Assembly: GCF_004010195.1 (NCBI RefSeq)
Contig: NC_057759.1
Span: 3,758,860-3,822,859, forward strand
Length of the DNA stretch: 64,000 nt
Direction of reading: 5' to 3'
DNA from: Chiloscyllium plagiosum
Taxonomy: Eukaryota
Shown: positions 8,036 through 63,703 of the stretch, one piece after another
How positions within the stretch are numbered: position 1 is the stretch's first letter
How the letters are laid out: each line of letters starts with the position of its first letter
Program-made: the position numbers and the translations under genes
The notes under the pieces: model-generated
The model's database searches: none
Told to the model about the DNA's origin: nothing
What the model saw: the letters and a program-made list of their open reading frames with translations, nothing else

Positions 8036-9057
8036 TTGGTAAAATTAATTCTGTCCCTGCGGATTTTCATCTTGCCACTTCCATAGAGAGCAGCAAGCAT
8101 CCCTCATTTGTCAATTTTGAGTGCCATACTCTCCATCATACTGTTGATCTCGTCTTTCACTCTATATCTAACAACTACTTGTATAATTTCAAAAGTTGAT
8201 GTGAAACTGGTAATATTCTTCTTTGTTTTTTTGTGAGATTTTACAGGAATTTGCAGTTTTCATCTCAAAAATACAAGATTGATTGACAGGATTGTTGCGT
8301 TTTTCCAGAGCAAGTAACCTGGGTGTGTTATTAGAGCAATAATAATACTGTTAGGCCATTTGATGCTCGTAAGAGATCCACTTTGCAGTGCACGAAGAGA
8401 ATGTCTCTTACTGGTTCAGATTTTGCAAGTTCAAGTCCTTATGCAGTAACTGTGGATTATCATAACAACAGACTTATCAGAAAATGAAGCAAATTTGGAA
8501 CTCATTTCATGCTAGCGTCCCCAAATTTACCAGGGTGTGTCCTTTTAGATTTCGCTGCAGGTCGTTATTCCATTGAACATATGTTTTTCCTGTGCAGTGC
8601 AGCCGTTAATCTCCCTGAGGTAACAGTGGCTGAAGGACCTGAACTTAAGGGAATTTATATTTGCCAGGATTTGGTGTTGGAGAAGCTGTTAGGTCTGAAG
8701 GTTGATAAGTCTCCGGGGCCTGATGGTCTGCATCCCAGGGTACTGAAGGAGGTGGCTCGGGAAATCGTGAATGCGTTGGTGATTATTTTCCAGAGTTCAA
8801 TAGATGCGGGGTCGGTTCCTGAGGATTGGAGGGTGGCAAATGTTATACCACTTTTTAAGAAAGGTGGGAGAGAGAAAGCAGGAAATTATAGACCAGTTAG
8901 TCTGACCTCAGTGGTGGGAAAGATGCTGGAGTCTATTATAAAGGATGAAATTACAACACATCTGGATAGTAGTAACAGGATAGGACAGAGTCAGCATGGA
9001 TCTATGAAGGGGAAATCATGCTTGACTAATCTTCTGGAATATTTTGAGGATGTAACT

Positions 9058-9260
9058 NNNNNNNNNNNNNNNNNNNNNNNNNNNNNNNNNNNNNNNNNNN
9101 NNNNNNNNNNNNNNNNNNNNNNNNNNNNNNNNNNNNNNNNNNNNNNNNNNNNNNNNNNNNNNNNNNNNNNNNNNNNNNNNNNNNNNNNNNNNNNNNNNNN
9201 NNNNNNNNNNNNNNNNNNNNNNNNNNNNNNNNNNNNNNNNNNNNNNNNNNNNNNNNNNNN
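9058..9260. other. Assembly gap
   Basis: Run of N. Confidence 1.
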
Positions 9261-9438
9261 ACTGAAAGACTGAAGCGACTGGGCTTTTCACTGAAAGACT
9301 GAAGCGACTGGGCTTTTCACTGAAAGACTGAAGCGACTGGGCTTTTCACTGAAAGACTGAAGCGACTGGGCTTTTCACTGAAAGACTGAAGCGACTGGGC
9401 TTTTCACTGAAAGACTGAAGCGACTGGGCTTTTCACTG
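9261..9438 (+). repeat. Six identical 29-bp tandem units derived from CR1 sequence
   Basis: (ACTGAAAGACTGAAGCGACTGGGCTTTTC)x6. The ordinary single copy follows at about 9464. Confidence 0.95.
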
Positions 9439-53499: not shown

Positions 53500-54085
53500 G
53501 AAAATAATAAAGAAAGCTAATGGAATGCTGGCCTTCACATCGAGATGACTGGAGTATCATAATGCATTATTTGTGCTGCAGTAATACAAAATCCTGGTTA
53601 GGCCCCATATGAAGCATTTTTGGGAACCACACCTTAGATCGGATAAAATGGCACAGTGGACGTTCACAACAATGATGCTTGGACTTCAGGATGCAAAGTA
53701 ATGAGGTGATATTTGACAGATTAGACCACTTCCCTCTATAATTTAGAAAGTTAATCGGTGACCTAATCGAAGATGTTAACTGGAAAAGACAGGGTAGGTA
53801 AAGATAAAATATTATCACTCATGGGTGTATTTTAGAACTAAGGAAGGAATAGTCTGAGAATGAGGTCAAGAGCGTTCAGGAAAGATATTTGGAAGCACTT
53901 CTCCACACAAGGGGTGGCATACGTTTGGAACTCTCTTCCACAAACAGCAGTTGGTGCTGGATCAGTTATTTCAATCTAAGAGAAAAACGTTTTTGTTAGA
54001 CCGAATTCCCAAATGGAGTTAGGCCACAATCTGCACGATCTCATTGAATGGTGGAACAGGTTTAAGGTTACTCTTGCCTTCCTGA
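53500..54085 (+). mobile_element. Degraded CR1 3' fragment
   Basis: KKANGMLAF, YKILVRPHM and FSTQGVAYVWNSLP. Confidence 0.8.
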
Positions 54086-55340: not shown

Positions 55341-55547
55341 AATTCAATCGACTTGGCCTGATGTCTGCATATTCAAAATTTCCTGCAGGTTCGTCCTCTG
55401 TTGTGCCCTCAGCTCGATTTCCCATCGCCTCCCTTGGAATGATATAATCTGGATCATTTCCAAAGCAAGTTCCACTCCCGTTCGCGACAACAATTTGCTG
55501 CTGTCATGTCCGAATATCCGTGGCAACAAGGTAACTGAGCCAAGGTC
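55341..55547 (-). pseudogene. Cytoplasmic-tail exon of the IgSF receptor pseudogene
   Basis: ttccttAG...GTGAGT, 207 nt, phase 1-1. Reads GPWLSYLVATDIRT*QQQIVVANGSGTCFGNDPDYIIPREAMGNRAEGTTEDEPAGNFEYADIRPSRLN, with one TGA at 55504-55506. Confidence 0.5.
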
Positions 55548-55609
55548 CTAAGGAACGACGTCCTGGAATTGTCTGGAATGTGGCTAAGAACGTCTATATT
55601 CGTCGAATG

Positions 55610-56110
55610 ATAAGATTTTGACGGATGGAAGGAGGTCATTCTTGTCTGTACCAGCTCCTGAAAGAGATACCCAGCTAGAGATACCACTATCCAGCCCAAT
55701 CTCCACAGTCCTCTCGCATCATCTCTTTCAAACATATATCCAGCTCTCTTTTGAAACCTGTGCAACCGTCTCCACCAATCTCCCATACAGCACATTACAA
55801 ACTCAACGACCCTCTACATGAAGACGTTTTTCGTCATCCCACTCTCTTATTGACAATAATTGGAATTTTGACCCACTAACGATTGGTAGGCCTGCGAGTG
55901 GGAAACAGAATATCCTCCTTTGCCCTGTCAGAATTGGTCATAACTTTCAACAACTGAAAAAGTTCACCACTTCACCTTCTCTGAATCTCTCTAACTTTTT
56001 CCTCTGTATCTAAAATCCCCCATTACTCGTTTAATTCTAGTAAATCTCCTTCTCACTCCTTCGAGGGTAGGAACATCCTTCCTTCAATAAGGTATCCAGA
56101 ATTGAACATA
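55610..56110 (-). mobile_element. Old CR1 3' fragment
   Basis: Reverse-complement tail and ccagaattgaaca. Confidence 0.6.
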
Positions 56111-56544
56111 ACCAGGCTGGGTAATAGAAGGCCAATTCCCTTCCTAAACCGTATTTCTACATTCAGCTTCAGTTGTCTACAAAGGTAAGGTGTCTCACAC
56201 ACACACACAAAGAAATGTCCGACGGATCAAAGAAATGTTCCCCACGTTTTGACTGATCATCATGACTTAATATTCTCCATTCAATGCATGTTCCCTCACT
56301 AGAATTCATTTCTTTTCAGCCTTTTGCTCTCTATTGCAAGTTGGGTTAGCTCAGTTGGCTGGATAGATAATTCTGTGTGATTTATTAATCAGTCTCCCCC
56401 TGTCCTGCTACTTTAATTGATCTCTGCATATGTACCCACAACTCCTTTTGCTCCTATAACCCCATTCGAATTGCAACCCCCTACATTTCAGTTTCTTCCA
56501 CCCAACGCGAAAATTGTGTTGAATCTTTTTGTCTTTATGATGAC

Positions 56545-56837
56545 TAGATTTCCTACAGCGTGGAAACAAGGCCCTTCATCCCAAAGTGTCCACACCGACC
56601 CTCCGCAAAGTAACTCACCGAGGCCCATTTCCCTCTGGCTAATGCACCTAACAATATGGCCAATTTAGCATGGCCAATTCACCTAACCTGCACATCTTTG
56701 GAGAGTGTGAGGAAACCGGAGCAAACCCATACAGACACGGGGAGAACGTGCAAACAGACAGTCGCCCAAGGCTGGAATCGAACCTGCCACCTTGGTGTTG
56801 TAAGGCAGCAATGCTATCCACTGAGCCACCATGCCGC
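56545..56837 (-). mobile_element. HE1 SINE
   Basis: Tail, V domain and head. Confidence 0.9.
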
Positions 56838-56959
56838 ATTTTCTGATATCCACGAGTTAAAACCTGTTTTTTTTTAAATAACAAATGTTCAGTGGTTTTG
56901 TTAATTGCCTTTCTACTAACTAACAATATCACTCCACAAGAACACATAGGCTTATGGGG

Positions 56960-57800
56960 CTAACATATAGGGTTAGGTTGGGTCTATTTAACCCCTCAGG
57001 TGCCTGATCCCCAATTCGATAGAACCACGGCTCATCTCATCTCAGCCTCACCTCCACTTTTCTGACGACACTCCCTTTGACCAATGACTCATTAAAAATG
57101 TATCTATCCCCTCTTTCAATATATTCTGTGTCCTGGGGGTCAGGGTTGGGCGTTCCCACAGATTCATAACACACTCCACATTTGGGAGAAATCATTCTTC
57201 CTTATCACTGTTTTTGATCTGCCTCACTCCCTTCTCCTGCAACGATGACTCCTCTTTCTAGATTATCCCACATGAGGAAACATCCTCTCTCCATCTCCTT
57301 TCTCAATACCCCCTTTAGGCCTTATGTCCCTCAGTTAGATCGCATCTCGGCCAAATGCCAAGAAACCGTTCAATCTCTGATCTGAGACAACCCCTTCGTC
57401 TCTGGAAATAATCGAGAGAATCTCCTCTGAACTGACTCTAACTGTCCTCAATTAAAGAGATCAAAATTGAAGCAATCACTCCTCATAAGATTAACCTTAT
57501 ATCTTGATAATCAATTCAATGAATCTCCTCTAAACTCCCTTTAATTCAATTACATCCCTCCTCAATTATGGCGACCAAAATTGTACGAAACACTCTGGAT
57601 GTGGAAACCCCAATACCTTGTACAGTTGCAGCAACACTGCAACACTTTCATTCTCCATTCCTTTAGCAATAAATGCCTTTCTTATTACTTGCTGCGATTG
57701 TATACTATTTTCTGAGATTCATGCACAAGGACATCCACATCCCTGTGACCAATATATTTTGAACCTTCTCTCCCATTCACATGATAAGTTGCCTTTTTCA
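56960..57800 (-). mobile_element. Old CR1 3' fragment
   Basis: ggcgaccaaaattgtacg reverse-complement motif; short internal duplication at about 57400-57590. Confidence 0.65.
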
Positions 57801-58037
57801 ATATTTTTTTTCCACACTAGATAGCCTCACTACTGATGGGACTGATCCACGCACAGTTCAGTGTCCTCGATTTGAACTTTTGTGTTTGAGATCCGCAAAA
57901 TAGTCAGCCACAAAAGTCCATATACTCCAATTTGTCCGACAAATATTAAATGTCTGGTTTTGCAACCCAGAGTGATTTTCAGCCTACTCAGACTGCTTGA
58001 ATGCTGTTAGAAGTTGCCAACCACTTCACTAACTTAC

Positions 58038-58068
58038 CTGTGCTACTGGGAACTGCTGGAAAAATCAG
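58038..58068 (-). pseudogene. Candidate mini cytoplasmic exon
   Basis: Strong acceptor ttttctgtcttattttctccAG and donor CAG|GTAAGT. An inner acceptor gives an 18-nt phase 1-1 exon (58038-58055, AVPSST). Confidence 0.4.
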
Positions 58069-58339
58069 CTGGAGAAAATAAGACAGAAAAACGGGGATGT
58101 TTTACCGTTAGTATTCCGTTTCACCTGTTTGCAAATGAATCTGTTTTCCTTGACTACTGTGCAAGCAGCAATTACTCTTATGGTCATCTTTCGTTTGTAT
58201 ATGTGCTGACCAATTGTCTGACCACAACACATAACTTTGTATATCAGCCCTTTCAATTTATCTGCCAGTCATCCAACCTGCCCACATCTGCACAACGCAC
58301 CTCCCAAATGATGTTGTATGATTTGTCTTTTCTTTTTCA

Positions 58340-58570
58340 TAGATTAGGTTAGATTCCATACAGTGTGGAAACAGGCCCTTCGGCCCAACCAGTTTGGACC
58401 GCCCTTCCGAACAGTATCCCAACCAGACCCACCTCCTTCTGACTAATGCACCTATCACTATGGGAAATTTAGCATGACCAATTCACCCAACCAGCACCTC
58501 TTTGGACTGTGGGAGGAAACCGGAGCACCAGGAGGAAACCCATGCAGACACGGGGAAAATGTGCAAACTA
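58340..58570 (-). mobile_element. 5'-truncated HE1 SINE
   Basis: Tail and V domain. Confidence 0.9.
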
Positions 58571-58589
58571 CCCCATCACTAGTTGATTC

Positions 58590-58880
58590 CTTGAGAAATT
58601 AGTCTGGTCCTGCATTATTTAACTGCAGAAGTCCATGTGCTGTTGGTACACCCACGATGCCTTCAGGGAGGGAATTCCATCATTTTGACCCCAGGAACAG
58701 CCAATATATCCCAAATCAAGACGGTAAGTGGCTCAAAAGATATATGGTGTCCCATCTATCTGCTGCCCTTGCCCTTCTACATGGACGTGGTCATAGGTTT
58801 GGAAGGTGCTCTCTGAAGTTCTGCAGTGCATCTTGTGGATGGTATACAGTGGTGTTACTGAGCGTTGGTGATGCAGGGAG
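58590..58880 (-). mobile_element. L2-clade LINE fragment
   Basis: Same family as 10215-10635. Confidence 0.7.
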
Positions 58881-59025
58881 AGAATTTTTATAGATGCCAT
58901 GACACACACACGCACACGCACACACAATTTCAAGTCTACACTACATCAGCAACGTTAGTTTGAAACCCGTTTTGAATCGCGACTGGAGAACGATCGCTAG
59001 CATTACCTGCTGGAGTGTTCCACAC

Positions 59026-59166
59026 CTTGGTTCCTGTAGCAGTGTTTAATGGGAAGCAATGTGAGGAGAGAAAGGATCAGAAACAGTGGGACAATGAGTG
59101 CTGCCATCTCAGCGGCGTTTGTCTGTGCTGTAATCAGAGAGGAATTTCCTGTCAATATCATAATTC
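59026..59166 (-). pseudogene. Transmembrane exon of the IgSF receptor pseudogene
   Basis: 141 nt, phase 1-1. Reads GIMILTGNSSLITAQTNAAEMAALIVPLFLILSLLTLLPIKHCYRNQ: a 19-aa hydrophobic run then basic residues. An alternative donor lies at 59006. Confidence 0.65.
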
Positions 59167-59471
59167 CTTCAGCAAACACAAACCCAGTGTTTCCTGTTCA
59201 CTGTTGCCCTGACCCCCTGCCCACACCAGTCCATTTGGAGGAAACCCTTGTCTCTGTGAAATTCACTCCAAACCCTCACTGTCACAATGACATCATTGTT
59301 TCTGTGCAGTCACTCTCATTAACAATATCCCACCAATTCAACTCAGACTATTAGATGCTAAACTCAAAAGATCGCTCTGCACCCACATTCTCTAAATTGT
59401 CGACTATAAATTATTATCCCTCATTTTCACTGCCTGCATATATCAAAGCAAAACTTTCCTTTCTCATCCAC

Positions 59472-59763
59472 CTGTCAGTGGAAACTGGACCATTCACAGA
59501 GAAACAGCGAAAATATCAGGAGGATATAATTCGGCCCATCCAGTCTGCCTGCCCATGGCTGATGCTCCAACTCACATCGATAAGTTGCTCTGTCTGAAAA
59601 CTCGCCCTTGCTATCGTGTACTCTGGTTCATGTTTTTCTTCAATTAAGGGATTGTTTCGATACCAAAGGAAGATGTAATTTCTTTCAGGTCCACGGGAAT
59701 GTCTGGTTTCACTAAACAGTAGAGTCCTTGAACTGACTTGCAAAATCAATGTCACACCCAAAG
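59472..59763 (-). pseudogene. Disrupted C2-type Ig exon, Fc-receptor-like
   Basis: ttcgtctttcAG acceptor, then ALGVTLILQVSSRTLLFSET-RHSRGPERNYIFLWYRNNPLIEEKHEPEYTIAR, a frameshift, and FSDRATYRCELEH. The first Cys segment is missing and a CR1-tail-like insert sits at about 59495-59552. Confidence 0.7.
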
Positions 59764-59849
59764 CTGAAAGACGAAAGTACAACTTGTAAGATCTATCAAG
59801 CCTTACTAGCACATATTACAGTTTAAGTTTAGCGAAGTCTTATAGCAAC

Positions 59850-60300
59850 TGCATTGTGTGTTTGGAGGCAGTTCACATAAAGTTTACTGGGATGATCCTC
59901 GGGATGTAGGGTCCGTCTTATGAGCAAAGGCAACACAAGTTGGGATTCTACTCACAGGAATTTCGAAGAATGAGAGGTGATCTCATTGAAACGTGTCAGG
60001 ATACGATCAATGCTGAGAGGATGTTTCACCTCATGGGAGAGTCCGGACCAGAGGGCATAGTCTCAGATTAAAGCGACACTGATTGAAGAATGAGACAGGG
60101 AGGTATTTCTTCTCTCACAGGGTTGGGAGTCTTTGTAACTCTTTGTTGCACTGGACTGTGTGGGGGCAGACTCCTTGTGTACGTTGAAGGCGAAGACAAA
60201 TGGATTCTTGATCAACTGGGGAATCAACGGAAAAGGGCAGGAAAGGGAACATGAGGAATTTTGGATCAGCCACGATCCTGCTGGATGGCAGAGCAGGAGA
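59850..60300 (+). mobile_element. CR1 3' fragment
   Basis: EFRRMRGDLIET...TRGHSLRL. Confidence 0.82.
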
Positions 60301-60382
60301 GACAGAAGCTTGGGAAATCTCGGGATAATCAGCACGTAAAGACTCTATCATCTCAATTCTGATCCGAGAATGCCTTCCATCT

Positions 60383-60700
60383 GAGGTGCTAATGGCCTAG
60401 TGGTATTATTGACTATTAATTATTAATCCAGTGACTTGGGATCAAAGTCCGCCATGGCAGATGCTGGAGTTTGAAATCAGTTAGTAAAAATCTGTAATTA
60501 AGAGTCTAATGATGACCTTAAATTAACAGCTGATTGTCAGGGGAAAAAGAAAATCTGATTCACTAATGTTCTTTAGGGAAGGAAATATGCCAGCAGTACC
60601 TAAGCTGACATACATGTGACTCCACACCCACAGCAATGTGGTTGACTCTTAACTGCCCTCTGGGCAATTAGGGATAGGCGATAGGTGCCAGCCTATTGCC
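60383..60700 (+). mobile_element. Meta-domain-like tRNA-SINE with L2-type tail
   Basis: tggcctagtgg A box, ttcactaatgttctttagggaaggaaa core and gggcaattagggatagg tail. Confidence 0.8.
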
Positions 60701-60839
60701 AATCAACTCTCATTGGCAATCAGCTAAAAAGGTATTGGGATGGAATATCGAGGCAACAAGTTAATCATCTATTTTAGTAACATGCAAACGATAATACAAA
60801 TAGTATGAAGACTGCCGGATGGTTAATATTGAGAGGGAA

Positions 60840-61665
60840 TGTGTTAGGTTACAGTTGATTCAGTCAGATGGAAAGTTCAGTGACACATGGAGTTGAATTC
60901 TGGTTAATGGGAGCTGATGCACTTTGGAAAAATGGCGGACTCAAAGAATGATAGGACACAAAGGGATCTTGGGGTATTTGTACACAATTTCCAGAAGGTG
61001 GAAGGACAGCTTAATAGTATTTTTAAGAAGGGAGAAGGGACACTTTCCTCCATCTGTAAAAGTGTATGTTATAAGAGTGGAGAGGTGATGTTGGAGTGGG
61101 ACAAGTCTTTGATGACGCCACAGCTGGAAAACTGTGTGCAGTTCAAGTCTCTGCACAATAGAAGGATGCGACTGCGTTGGACGGGTATGGGGGGAGATTC
61201 CCCAGCATGTACCCTTGGATGGAACATTTCAGCGATGAAGAGTTTTTGGATAAGCTTGAGTTGTTTTGTTTTGTGCAGCGAAGACTGTGGGGCGATCTGA
61301 TTGAGGTGTGTAAGATTAAGAGGAACATGTATAGGGGGATAGGAAGCAGTTGTTTCCTTTAGTCAAAGGTTCTGTAACAAGGAGGGGAGGCATGATTTTA
61401 AAGTGAAAAGCAGGAGATTCAGAAAGGGATTTGAGGATAGTTTCACCCAGAGGGTAAGAGGATCTGGATTTCACTACCTGTGAGGATAGTTGAGGCGGGG
61501 TACCTCCCAGCCATTAAAATGCTCACGGTCACCGCTTTGTAATGTCATAACATTCAGGGCTGTGAGCCTAGTGCAGGAAAGTGGGGCTAGTGTATAGGTC
61601 AGTGCAGTGCTGATGGGCCGAAATGTTTCTTCTGTGTTGTATGTGACCACGACTCTATGATTCAC
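60840..61665 (+). mobile_element. Degraded CR1 3' fragment
   Basis: QRDLGVFVH, PQLENCVQF and RLWGDLIEVCKI. Confidence 0.8.
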
Positions 61666-61819
61666 TCACTAAAGTAATTGAGAAGCTAAAGTAACTTGGA
61701 AATGAAAAGGCCTGGTTGTTCCAGATCAACAGGAACTCCCTCGCTGTATTGTAACTGGGAACAGTGAGCAAACCATGGGAGATGGTGAAGCTGGTTTGAC
61801 ACTGCTTCCATAATCAGCT

Positions 61820-63128
61820 GGGCTCTCAGCAATATTTAGGATGTGACAGAGTGTACGATTCAGCCATGTCAGGATAGAATGTTGACACAGTGTAGGGAGA
61901 AAGGGACATGCCAGAGTGCAGGATGAGGTCCAATGTATGATACGGCGAAGTGAAGGGCGAGGCCAGTGAAGGGTGACGCACGGTTTAGGAATTGGCCGAG
62001 TGCAATGTGAGGCCCAGTTTAAGATGTGACTCAGTGTCGGAAGCAACGTAGTTTATGATGTGGCTACGTTTCCATTGTGGCCGACTGTAGGATCTCATCT
62101 AATTTAGCATGTGGTCCAGTATAGGATGCTTCACAGCTTGGTTTCAGGCCCAGTGAAAATAAGGCCCAACTTAGGACTTGACCCAGTTTATAATACGCCC
62201 AGTTGAGGATGAGGCGTACCAGTTGAGGATGATTGAGATGTGGCGTACGTAGAATATTTCCAGGTTTAGGATGTAATACATATTGGAACAAGATCCAGTT
62301 TAGGATGTTGTATAGTTTATGATAATGCCCAGTTTAGGATGAGGGCCAGATCAGGATGTTATCCAGTTTAGGACGAGGCCCAGTTTCAGATGAGGTCCAG
62401 TTTACGATGTAACACAGTTTATAATGAAGTTCAGTTTAGGATATGACCCAGTTTATGATGTGGCCCAATTTGGGATTTGGCCCAGTTTGGAACGTGGACC
62501 AGCTTGGCATGTAGCCCAGTTTGGAAAGTAGCTCAGTTTGGAATTTGGCCCGGTTTGGGACGTGGTCCAGTTTAAAATGTGGCCCATTTCGAATCTTAGA
62601 TTAGATTAGACTACATTAGATTACTTACAGTGTAAAAACAGGCCGTTCGGCCCAACAAGTCCACACCGACCCTCCGAAGAGCAACCCACCCAGACCCATT
62701 CCCCTACATTTACCCCTTCACTTAACACTACAGGCAATTTAGCATGGCCAATTCACCTAACCTGCACATTTTTGGACTGTGGGAGGGAACCGAAGCATCC
62801 CGAGGAAACCCATGCAGATACAGGGAGAATGTGCAAACTCCACGCAGAGAGTCACCTGAGGCAGGAATTGAACCCCGTCTTTGGCGCTGTGAGTCAGCAG
62901 TGCTAATCACTGTGTCACCGTGCCGCCAGAATCTTGGTCCAGTTCAGAATGTGGCCACGTTGGGAATGAGGCAAAGTTTACACTTAGTCCCAATTTAGGA
63001 TGGGACCCAATTTGGGTGAGGCGCAGTTTGGAATGTGGACCAGTTTAGGGTGAGGCCCAGTTTAGGGTGAGGCCCAGTTTAGGATCATGTCACGTTTACT
63101 TTAGGTCCCAGTTTACAATGAAGCCCAG
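61820..63128. repeat. 17-bp minisatellite (consensus about TGAGGCCCAGTTTAGGA)
   Basis: Near-perfect units at 63051-63084; more degenerate toward 61820; split by HE1. Confidence 0.9.
62598..62928 (-). mobile_element. Full-length HE1 SINE with 7-bp TSD
   Basis: GAATCTT at 62591-62597 and 62929-62935. Confidence 0.95.
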
Positions 63129-63461
63129 CCTCGTCAACAATGTGGGTAAATCTCTCAGGAGCAGGTAGGTCTTGAAACCAGTTCCCAGATCATTTGTGTC
63201 TCCGACTGAAAAGTGGATCACTATCAAGAAACCAAGAGGCCTCCTACTATTCTGATTTTTTTCTGGTCCTGATGGTCAACATTAAAATCTGGAGAGCTCG
63301 AGAATTCCCTCCCTTGGGAAGTAGGATAGAAGCACTCCATTCATCGCTGTGTCTTTGGGACTTGATGAATGGAACAGTATGATATATTGCGTGGTCTCTC
63401 TGCAAAAACAGGATTGTTGTTCGACACAGAGTACATACATCAACACTCAACGTTGACGTAC

Positions 63462-63703
63462 TTATAGTCACCACTTGGAAAGGTTCACTTTGTGAAAACA
63501 TGTTCGCAATTAGACACTGGTAAGAGCCTCTAGTTTTACTGCAAACTCTTCCGCTGAAGTCATAAGATTTGAACTTGTAATAGTTTTTCTTATACCAGGA
63601 AGTCTTTATAAATCTGTTGTTGCACTGATACTTCAGAGTGAACCATTCTCCTTCTTGTTGACACCATCCCTGGGATTAGTTATGACGACCTCTGAATATT
63701 GGC
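63462..63703 (-). pseudogene. C2-type Ig-domain exon, frameshifted
   Basis: tttttgttcttcggcAG...GTACGT, 242 nt (3n-1). Reads GQYSEVVITNPRDGV, frameshift, then QEGEWFTLKYQCNNRFIKTSWYKKNYYKFKSYDFSGRVCSKTRGSYQCLIANMFSQSEPFQVVTI. Confidence 0.8.

Follow-up and report, generated by a model that had tools for sequence, protein, structure and literature searches.

Passages of two papers describe a split signal peptide as a feature of the FcR/FCRL receptor family (PMC2413239, PMC7940838), and the second reports that mammalian FCRL3, 4, and 5 bind immunoglobulin (Ig) and that FCRL6 binds major histocompatibility complex (MHC) class II. Passages of PMC4016189 and PMC2413239 portray the CHIR cluster of chicken microchromosome 31 and the expanded XFL genes of Xenopus as sets of dozens of copies shaped by birth and death. 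For sharks, passages of a 2014 survey report no FcRL, FcR-gamma, or classical receptor in the genomes and date the family to bony fish (PMC4016189). The absence of shark FCRL is repeated in passages of a 2026 review, which ask how cartilaginous fish manage antibody-dependent phagocytosis (PMC13337447). Here we describe a receptor locus on the minus strand of a 64,000-nucleotide stretch of the bamboo shark Chiloscyllium plagiosum genome (RefSeq assembly GCF_004010195.1, contig NC_057759.1, called C50 below, positions 3,758,860 to 3,822,859; hereafter the window). The window locus is a real, nonfunctional, and apparently segmentally duplicated copy of a gene for a type I receptor with five Ig domains. 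The dead copy by itself is minor, and its importance lies in the family to which it points.

Sauropsid and amphibian FCRLs (the FCRL2-type proteins of turtle, alligator, and falcon and the XFL proteins of Xenopus) share with the shark proteins the five-domain order D1-D2-D3-D4-D6, the type of the membrane-proximal domain, the series of four tail tyrosines, and the split leader. D6 is our label for the proximal domain of frog, turtle, and bird proteins and may differ from the D6 of PMC2413239. The shark proteins of subfamilies A and B (see below) differ from these FCRLs in having diverged D1 and D2 domains, a domain 4 closer to the last domain of PECAM1, and no activating member among those seen. 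Human FCRL5, FCRL4, FCRL3, and FcgammaRI are the top matches among solved structures, are colinear from D1, and share the tail type with immunoreceptor tyrosine-based inhibitory motifs (ITIMs); identity of the shark proteins to tetrapod FCRLs is about 22 to 26%. The mammalian-type proteins that were classed lack a D6-type domain, and the second leader exon is 21 nt in mammals, in contrast with 30 nt in the shark genes. PECAM1 (CD31) has D3-like and D4-like domain types and ITIMs in common with the shark family but differs in domain order, N-terminal domains, and tail. As in the CHIR and XFL sets, C50 carries dozens of copies with signs of birth and death, whereas most of the copies examined there are broken fragments and paired activating forms were not seen.

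A broken copy of a five-domain receptor gene

A sequence-only reading of the window had placed five exon-like blocks, ordered as in a type I receptor, on the minus strand. The blocks are present with all of the motifs quoted for them, and each has paralogs at 73 to 89% identity, far beyond chance. Across exons and introns alike, the copy was colinear with an annotated, intact gene on C50 at 70 to 79% DNA identity, and the alignment runs from about 11 kb beyond the window to window position 53,510. Identity to the parent is similar in exons and introns, and the locus therefore appears to have arisen by segmental duplication followed by neutral decay. In trees, the window D1 grouped with D1 of the intact paralog and of a Stegostoma protein (support, 100/95), and the window D2 grouped with D2 of the intact paralog (100/97). 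The intact paralog also carries a degenerate short-unit minisatellite in the intron between D1 and D2, as the window does at 61900-63130. A Pfam check gave a divided result: neither of the two raw window fragments matched, while D1 of the intact paralog matched Ig_2 with an E value of 6.5e-4 and the full protein with 3e-34. A profile built from the family's own domains matched both window Ig pieces (E, 0.0013).

Exon boundaries were corrected by alignment to the intact paralog and by alignments among the copies. The 242-nt D1 exon (63462-63703, bounded by AG and GT) stood as first proposed, as did the donors of the transmembrane (TM), mini, and tail exons; the end of the second Ig exon and the acceptors of the other three exons did not. 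Only the 5′ 192 nt of the D2 exon are left (59572-59763), the exon being cut off at 59572, where Ig homology ends. The D2 query matched paralogs over its first ~220 bases only, and the remainder matched a far more numerous repeat. The sequence at about 59556-59472 is the 3′ end of a CR1-type long interspersed nuclear element (LINE) plus intron, a combination that precedes the TM exon in other copies. Therefore, the GT at 59471 is not the D2 donor, and the end once set at 59472 is withdrawn. The TM exon occupies 59026-59127 (102 nt, with an open frame and a core lacking charged residues) instead of beginning at 59166. The first cytoplasmic mini exon is not the 18-nt block at 58038-58055 but a 31-nt exon at 58038-58068 that runs from phase 1 to phase 2 and holds a premature TAG. 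Likewise, the second cytoplasmic exon, initially drawn as 55341-55547, covers 55341-55432 (92 nt, phase 2 to 1); where the window has AG at 55548, the other copies aligned have GG. Its entry in phase 2 overturns the earlier view that all of the exons enter in phase 1. It encodes the only tyrosine motif that survives in the window copy, FEYADI, which is ITIM-like but nonconsensus. Homology to the intact gene last appears in an intron block (53510-53977) that ends ~140 nt before the position of the next exon. As anticipated, the 5′ end lies beyond the window, with the leader exons at about C50:3,827,190 and 3,825,740.

Lesions were found throughout the copy. In the leader, the first ATG has become GTG, with an in-frame ATG remaining in leader exon 1, and leader exon 2 has lost 1 nt. 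A 1-nt deletion near 63658 shifts the frame of D1 into a TGA at 63635-63633. In D2, an 18-nt deletion takes out the first cysteine, and a second lesion, a 1-nt deletion, lies near 59597. Colinear blocks relative to the intact locus place the junction of a much larger deletion at 59518-59572. About 4.3 kb, corresponding to intact-locus coordinates 24890 to 20566, is missing there, including the 3′ end of D2 and all of D3, D4, and D5, and the sequence picks up again within the LINE-derived intron that precedes the TM exon. The two-Ig architecture of the window copy is thus a product of this deletion from a five-domain parent. In the 31-nt tail exon, one and the same codon is a stop in 3 of 13 distinct variants (TAG in the window and TGA in two others) and encodes Trp or Gln elsewhere. 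The four remaining tail exons were not found in the window. Two independent contigs from a public run of unrecorded kind overlap the locus. The contig over 59354-59986 spans the deletion junction with two substitutions and no gap, and that over 57781-58373, which includes the mini exon, does not differ from the window. Since these contigs reproduce the D2 lesions, the junction, and the stop, those defects are not assembly errors.

With a shifted leader, frameshifts in D1 and D2, the ~4.3-kb deletion, a stop, and lost exons, the window copy is unable to encode the receptor. The contrary proposal, that the locus is alive, either because the lesions arose in assembly or because it yields a short product, secreted or acting as a decoy, is largely refuted and in our judgment highly improbable. 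It could draw on the open frames of the TM and second tail exons, on splice sites that are mostly intact, and on the ATG left in the leader. However, the locus has at least seven separate lesions, and the frameshifted second leader exon lies ahead of every Ig domain. In addition, the lesions of D2, the junction, and the stop recur in the independent contigs; those of D1 and the leader fall outside the contigs' cover. These findings bear out the proposal that the locus is a decayed gene from a family of leukocyte-type Ig receptors in sharks that also has intact paralogs.

The intact paralog and its relatives

C50, the contig carrying the window, is 8,079,144 bp long. A search of the genome with D1 DNA gave 12 matches that represent 11 copies, one being split by a short interspersed nuclear element (SINE), and 10 of the copies are on C50. 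The frame was open from the acceptor in only 1 of the 10 full-length D1 copies. The intact, open D1 copy, at C50 2.526 Mb, belongs to the annotated 655-amino-acid (aa) protein XP_043539740, which RefSeq names "PECAM-like." The other copies of this subfamily (A) that were examined contain stops or frameshifts, and several are reduced to D4-D5-TM-tail fragments. For the TM exon, there were at least 41 matches in the genome (28 on C50), and for the second tail exon there were at least 40 (29 on C50).

The intact gene has a signal peptide split over two exons (40 and 30 nt) and an ectodomain of C2-type Ig domains, one per phase 1 exon, with D1 to D5 of 252, 267, 279, ~285, and 303 nt. A 102-nt TM exon, whose core has no charged residue, is followed by tail exons of 31 and 92 nt and then four more. 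Pfam identified five Ig_2 stretches, and no V-set stretch passed by itself. The AlphaFold model (mean predicted local distance difference test score, 74.6) shows five Ig folds and a single TM helix, with the tail modeled at low confidence. There are five tyrosine motifs in the tail (FDYAEI, AVYSSV, LLYSVV, IIYATL, and NVYANV), of which the window copy keeps one; LLYSVV and IIYATL fit the ITIM consensus. None of the runs recorded as RNA contained the D2 exon of this paralog, and the cover from run X7 and from 2% of a single-cell run fell on repeats, not on exons; neither result is evidence of silence.

The gene directly 5′ of the window gene (C50:3,840,700-3,875,000) belongs to a second, six-domain subfamily (B) and matches XP_043539697. 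Its Ig exons (3.841-3.868 Mb) are open, its domains class as D1-D2-D3-D3-D4-D6, and its leader exons are 31 and 30 nt long. The genomic tail motifs are ITYATL and NIYANI; the RefSeq isoforms examined, those of the XP_043539697 cluster, have another tail. C50 carries similar B genes at 4.9 and 7.06 Mb. B-type exons were found 18 to 66 kb upstream, on the same strand, in 8 of the 10 C50 D1 copies, which points to duplication of a cassette of B followed by A. Repeated duplication would have spread such a two-gene cassette along the 8-Mb chromosome, and nearly all A copies would then have decayed in a birth-and-death process. RefSeq models on this chromosome include XP_043539740 and XP_043539736 (A, "PECAM-like") and XP_043539697 and XP_043539714 (B); the window copy shares exons and introns with the C50 models but is broken.

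A third subfamily, C, is represented on C50 by six open exon copies of one domain. It occupies C50:5,415,000-5,439,000, with further copies at 2.26, 3.37 to 3.38, 5.15, 5.46, and 5.49 Mb. The 5.44-Mb member has a canonical FCRL D1 (53 bits versus 33 for the next class) and the tail VTYASL...VYQNI. A Mustelus relative of subfamily C, XP_078069574, has six domains that class in order as D1, ambiguous, D3, D4 or PECAM-6, D5, and D5; the two D5 domains score 69 and 63, and the layout is close to that of mammalian FCRL3. Subfamily C, traced in the bamboo shark genome at the level of exons, is the best candidate for an orthology test.

Named relatives of the family were found in Hemiscyllium, Stegostoma, Mustelus, Scyliorhinus, Heterodontus, Heptranchias, Carcharodon, and Cetorhinus and in the rays Hemitrygon and Narcine. 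Their RefSeq names, FCRL2 to FCRL6 or FcgammaRI-like, are automatic and inconsistent (PECAM-like versus FCRL). The 19 distinct A-type TM translations had no in-frame charged core residue, one frameshifted copy apart, and no activating member with a charged TM segment was seen among them or among the shark and ray proteins compared.

Probable FCRL-type identity and the PECAM1 question

The FcR/FCRL affinity first suggested for the window blocks agrees with the matches of the intact paralog in structure and protein databases. Its best matches among solved structures were FCRL5 (2.3e-49), FCRL4 (2.2e-19), and FcgammaRI (7e-19), all colinear from domain 1. Among 28 protein matches, FCRL-named proteins of frog, turtle, squirrel, and falcon ranked above CD22 (2e-20) and PECAM1 (2e-14), tetrapod FCRL-named proteins reaching 5e-69. 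Domain classes were assigned with profiles built from nonshark sequences. Domain 3 scored best as FCRL D3 (66 bits, versus 43 for the next class), and domain 5 came out as the membrane-proximal type found in FCRLs of frog, turtle, and bird (59 versus 30). Both assignments held for all of the tested shark proteins that have the domain. In trees, the shark proximal domain fell in a starred clade with these frog, turtle, and bird FCRLs (99/82, and 98/93 in a second tree that added paddlefish and one C24 domain), and its union with the last domains of PECAM1 was weakly rejected (P = 0.037). Shark D3, which is deleted in the window copy, grouped with tetrapod D3 at 85/73 to 88/77 (unstarred), with PECAM1 domains inside the group.

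The arrangement of domains and tail points in the same direction. Six proteins from turtle, alligator, and bird show the order D1-D2-D3-D4-D6 as well. The tail series of subfamily B (LEYAAV, LVYSVV, VTYATL, NIYANI) matches that of an alligator FCRL (LEYANV, VVYSVV, VTYAAL, DIYETI). A profile of shark tails gave 31 to 22 bits for paddlefish, alligator, and mammal-like FCRL tails, compared with 17 for the best of 119 PECAM1 tails. The family is thus built like nonmammalian FCRLs, and by sequence comparison its membership in the broad FcR/FCRL family is likely, not proven; an FCRL origin of the shark family, taken alone, is probable.

Several results weigh against an FCRL assignment. Domain 4 scored 64 with the profile of the teleost PECAM1 last domain versus 55 with that of FCRL D5, and in trees it grouped with domains of a gene on C24 (98/85). 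D1 and D2 of subfamily A classed weakly (28 to 30 bits) and were unstable in tree placement, D1 reaching 28 versus 22 bits and D2 ending in a three-way tie that included a CD22-like class; D1 and D2 of subfamily B were likewise weakly placed. Approximately unbiased (AU) tests rejected neither shark D3 with PECAM1 (P = 0.35) nor shark D3 with CD22 (P = 0.22). A tree of the last three domains placed the sharks with teleost PECAM1 (75/74); it was built on domains that lack colinearity, with one row cut wrongly, and five noncolinear proteins (Xenopus, two frog, one turtle, and paddlefish) were left out. A tree of D3 plus D4 rejected neither grouping (P = 0.36 and 0.14). The second leader exon, 30 nt in subfamilies A and B, departs from the 21 bp given for mammals in passages of PMC7940838. 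According to passages of PMC2413239, however, only a fraction of the Xenopus XFL genes obey the 21-bp rule, so the 30-nt exon excludes strict mammalian FCRL1-6/FCGR but not the broad family. With this exon and the open tree tests, we do not file the family under mammalian FCRL1-6. The trees themselves rest on few columns, without human, LITR, or CEACAM rows and with teleost PECAM1 rows only; the margin of the tail profile is small, and one of its training rows lacks a true tail. The later tree tests and the tail profile were chosen after earlier trees had been seen, the second domain tree used a thinned set of the repeated domains of frogs and mammals, and proteins of more than 1,300 aa were left out of the tail list.

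The sequence-only reading overlooked a real rival here, a PECAM1-related lineage, which the trees leave standing. The shark family could be a lineage of ITIM-bearing adhesion or inhibitory receptors that expanded in sharks as sister to the PECAM1/MILR1 branch, or it could form a third, equidistant branch; it would then have domain types in common with FCRL without being its ortholog. The PECAM-like name of the intact paralog, the affinities of domain 4 to the PECAM1 last domain and the C24 domains, the concatenated trees in which sharks plus PECAM1 go unrejected, and the 30-nt leader exon would all fit such a lineage. We nevertheless consider it unlikely. Similarity over the whole ectodomain is far higher to FCRL, and sharks and sauropsid FCRLs have the membrane-proximal domain and the four-tyrosine tail in common. 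Subfamily C, moreover, has its canonical FCRL D1, and the Mustelus relative has D3, D5, and D5. A separate PECAM1 candidate also exists: C24:48,062,000-48,096,500 has six Ig exons, three of which match domains 1 to 3 of the PECAM1 profile in order and one its last domain. Since the gene there matches profile positions 25 to 309 in order, it is the better PECAM1 candidate, and none of the shark C50 domains classed as PECAM1 domain 1, 2, or 3. No shark or tetrapod PECAM1 was present among the 120 homologs listed, which were teleost or unnamed PECAM1-type proteins; the PECAM1 tests therefore rest on teleosts and the C24 candidate.

Placement on the side of LITRs or the leukocyte receptor complex (KIR, LILR, CD22, and CEACAM), with a superficial FcR likeness confined to the distal domains, is far less probable than the PECAM1-related lineage. 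LITRs do have FcR-like D1/D2 domains, with KIR/LILR-like domains after them, according to passages of PMC2413239, the isolated D1 weakly matched KIR3DL1 and CD22 (E, about 0.01 to 0.06), the top Foldseek match was PirB (TM-score, 0.2), and the AU test left shark D3 with CD22 standing. However, LITRs, which were compared by description, are reported in those passages to be without D3-, D4-, and D5-type domains, whereas the shark family has a clear D3 and a D6-type domain. The label "LITR-like" is accordingly not supported. CD22 domains formed their own clade (100/94 and 100/96) in trees without LITR or CEACAM rows. A CEACAM or Siglec-CD22 assignment was set aside: such proteins have an N-terminal V-set domain, all five Pfam stretches of the intact paralog are Ig_2, and CD22 stands in its own clade, CEACAM being absent from the trees. 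Foldseek on the full-length model was uninformative, with generic multi-Ig matches (PirB, titin, and contactin) at TM-scores of 0.15 to 0.3.

In humans, KIRREL1, CD5L, ETV3, and NCSTN are neighbors of FCRL at 1q21-23. Among synteny markers in the shark genome, NCSTN and UFC1 lie on unplaced scaffolds, and RhoGEF-RGS matches were found on C35 and two unplaced scaffolds.

Possible function, significance, and other Ig loci

The FCRL-type assignment gives the most plausible account of function. The window holds a dead copy; its intact paralog is likely an inhibitory receptor of FCRL type that acts on leukocytes. By analogy with established ITIM biology, the parent would signal through its own ITIMs. 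Ligand binding by the distal domains may lead to phosphorylation of the tail and recruitment of SHP-1/2 or SHIP, which would damp antigen-receptor signaling with no need for an FcR-gamma adaptor. A genome search for the FcR-gamma/CD3-zeta family gave one strong match, which is CD3-zeta-like (C12:49,769,721-49,769,807), and no clear FCER1G, which is not proof of absence. For the putative ligand, antibody Fc is a first guess and MHC a second, and B cells are the likely cell type. Passages of a 2024 single-cell paper report, without analysis, high fcgr1a-like, fcrl3, and fcrl5 in bamboo shark B cells (PMC11372145). Its supplements have at least 11 "Fc receptor-like" rows, at least two of them for tongue sole.

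The novelty of the family is limited, in that RefSeq already gives its relatives automatic FCRL or PECAM-like names. The family is annotated but apparently undescribed, and it conflicts with the published claim that sharks lack FCRL. Our search, which reached few subscription journals, found no paper describing the C50 cluster, and nothing further about shark FCRL came from passages of PMC4810170, PMC5278576, PMC4536121, and PMC10751288. The intact genes, which occur in ten genera of cartilaginous fish, two of them rays, are candidates for binding of IgM, IgW, and IgNAR. Two titles in the reference list of PMC6795676 bear on this: "Fc receptor for shark IgM," by Haynes et al. (1988), and a 1997 title by McKinney and Flajnik about opsonization mediated by IgM. 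A bolder and rather doubtful proposal is that sharks and rays carry true FCRLs, which in the bamboo shark would form three subfamilies clustered along one chromosome with dead copies by the dozen, that D1-D2-D3-D4-D6 with a four-tyrosine tail is the ancestral FCRL of jawed vertebrates, and that one intact member is an antibody receptor. If true, the origin of Fc receptor-like proteins would move to the base of the jawed vertebrates, before bony fish, and one intact member would be the shark antibody receptor, never cloned, to which the 1988 title points.

Other Ig loci were noted in the same searches. The other two of the six Ig exons around the C24 PECAM1 candidate are D5-like, lie 8 and 26 kb after the PECAM1-type exons, and possibly belong to a separate MILR1-like gene. 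MILR1 adjoins PECAM1 in mammals. A multi-Ig gene at C24:37,386,000-37,399,000, one domain of which falls inside the FCRL membrane-proximal clade, is possibly a C17orf99-like paralog. At C26:10,995,000-11,268,200, six or more related Ig exons with weak PF17736 matches stand in tandem. An exon on C35 that was found in a genome search with teleost PECAM1 protein proved not to be PECAM1-like. Within the window, no further Ig exon was detected in positions 1 to 55000, which consist mostly of SINEs and LINE fragments with three N gaps. Reverse transcriptase-like open reading frames are present at 2-1195 and 8488-9273.

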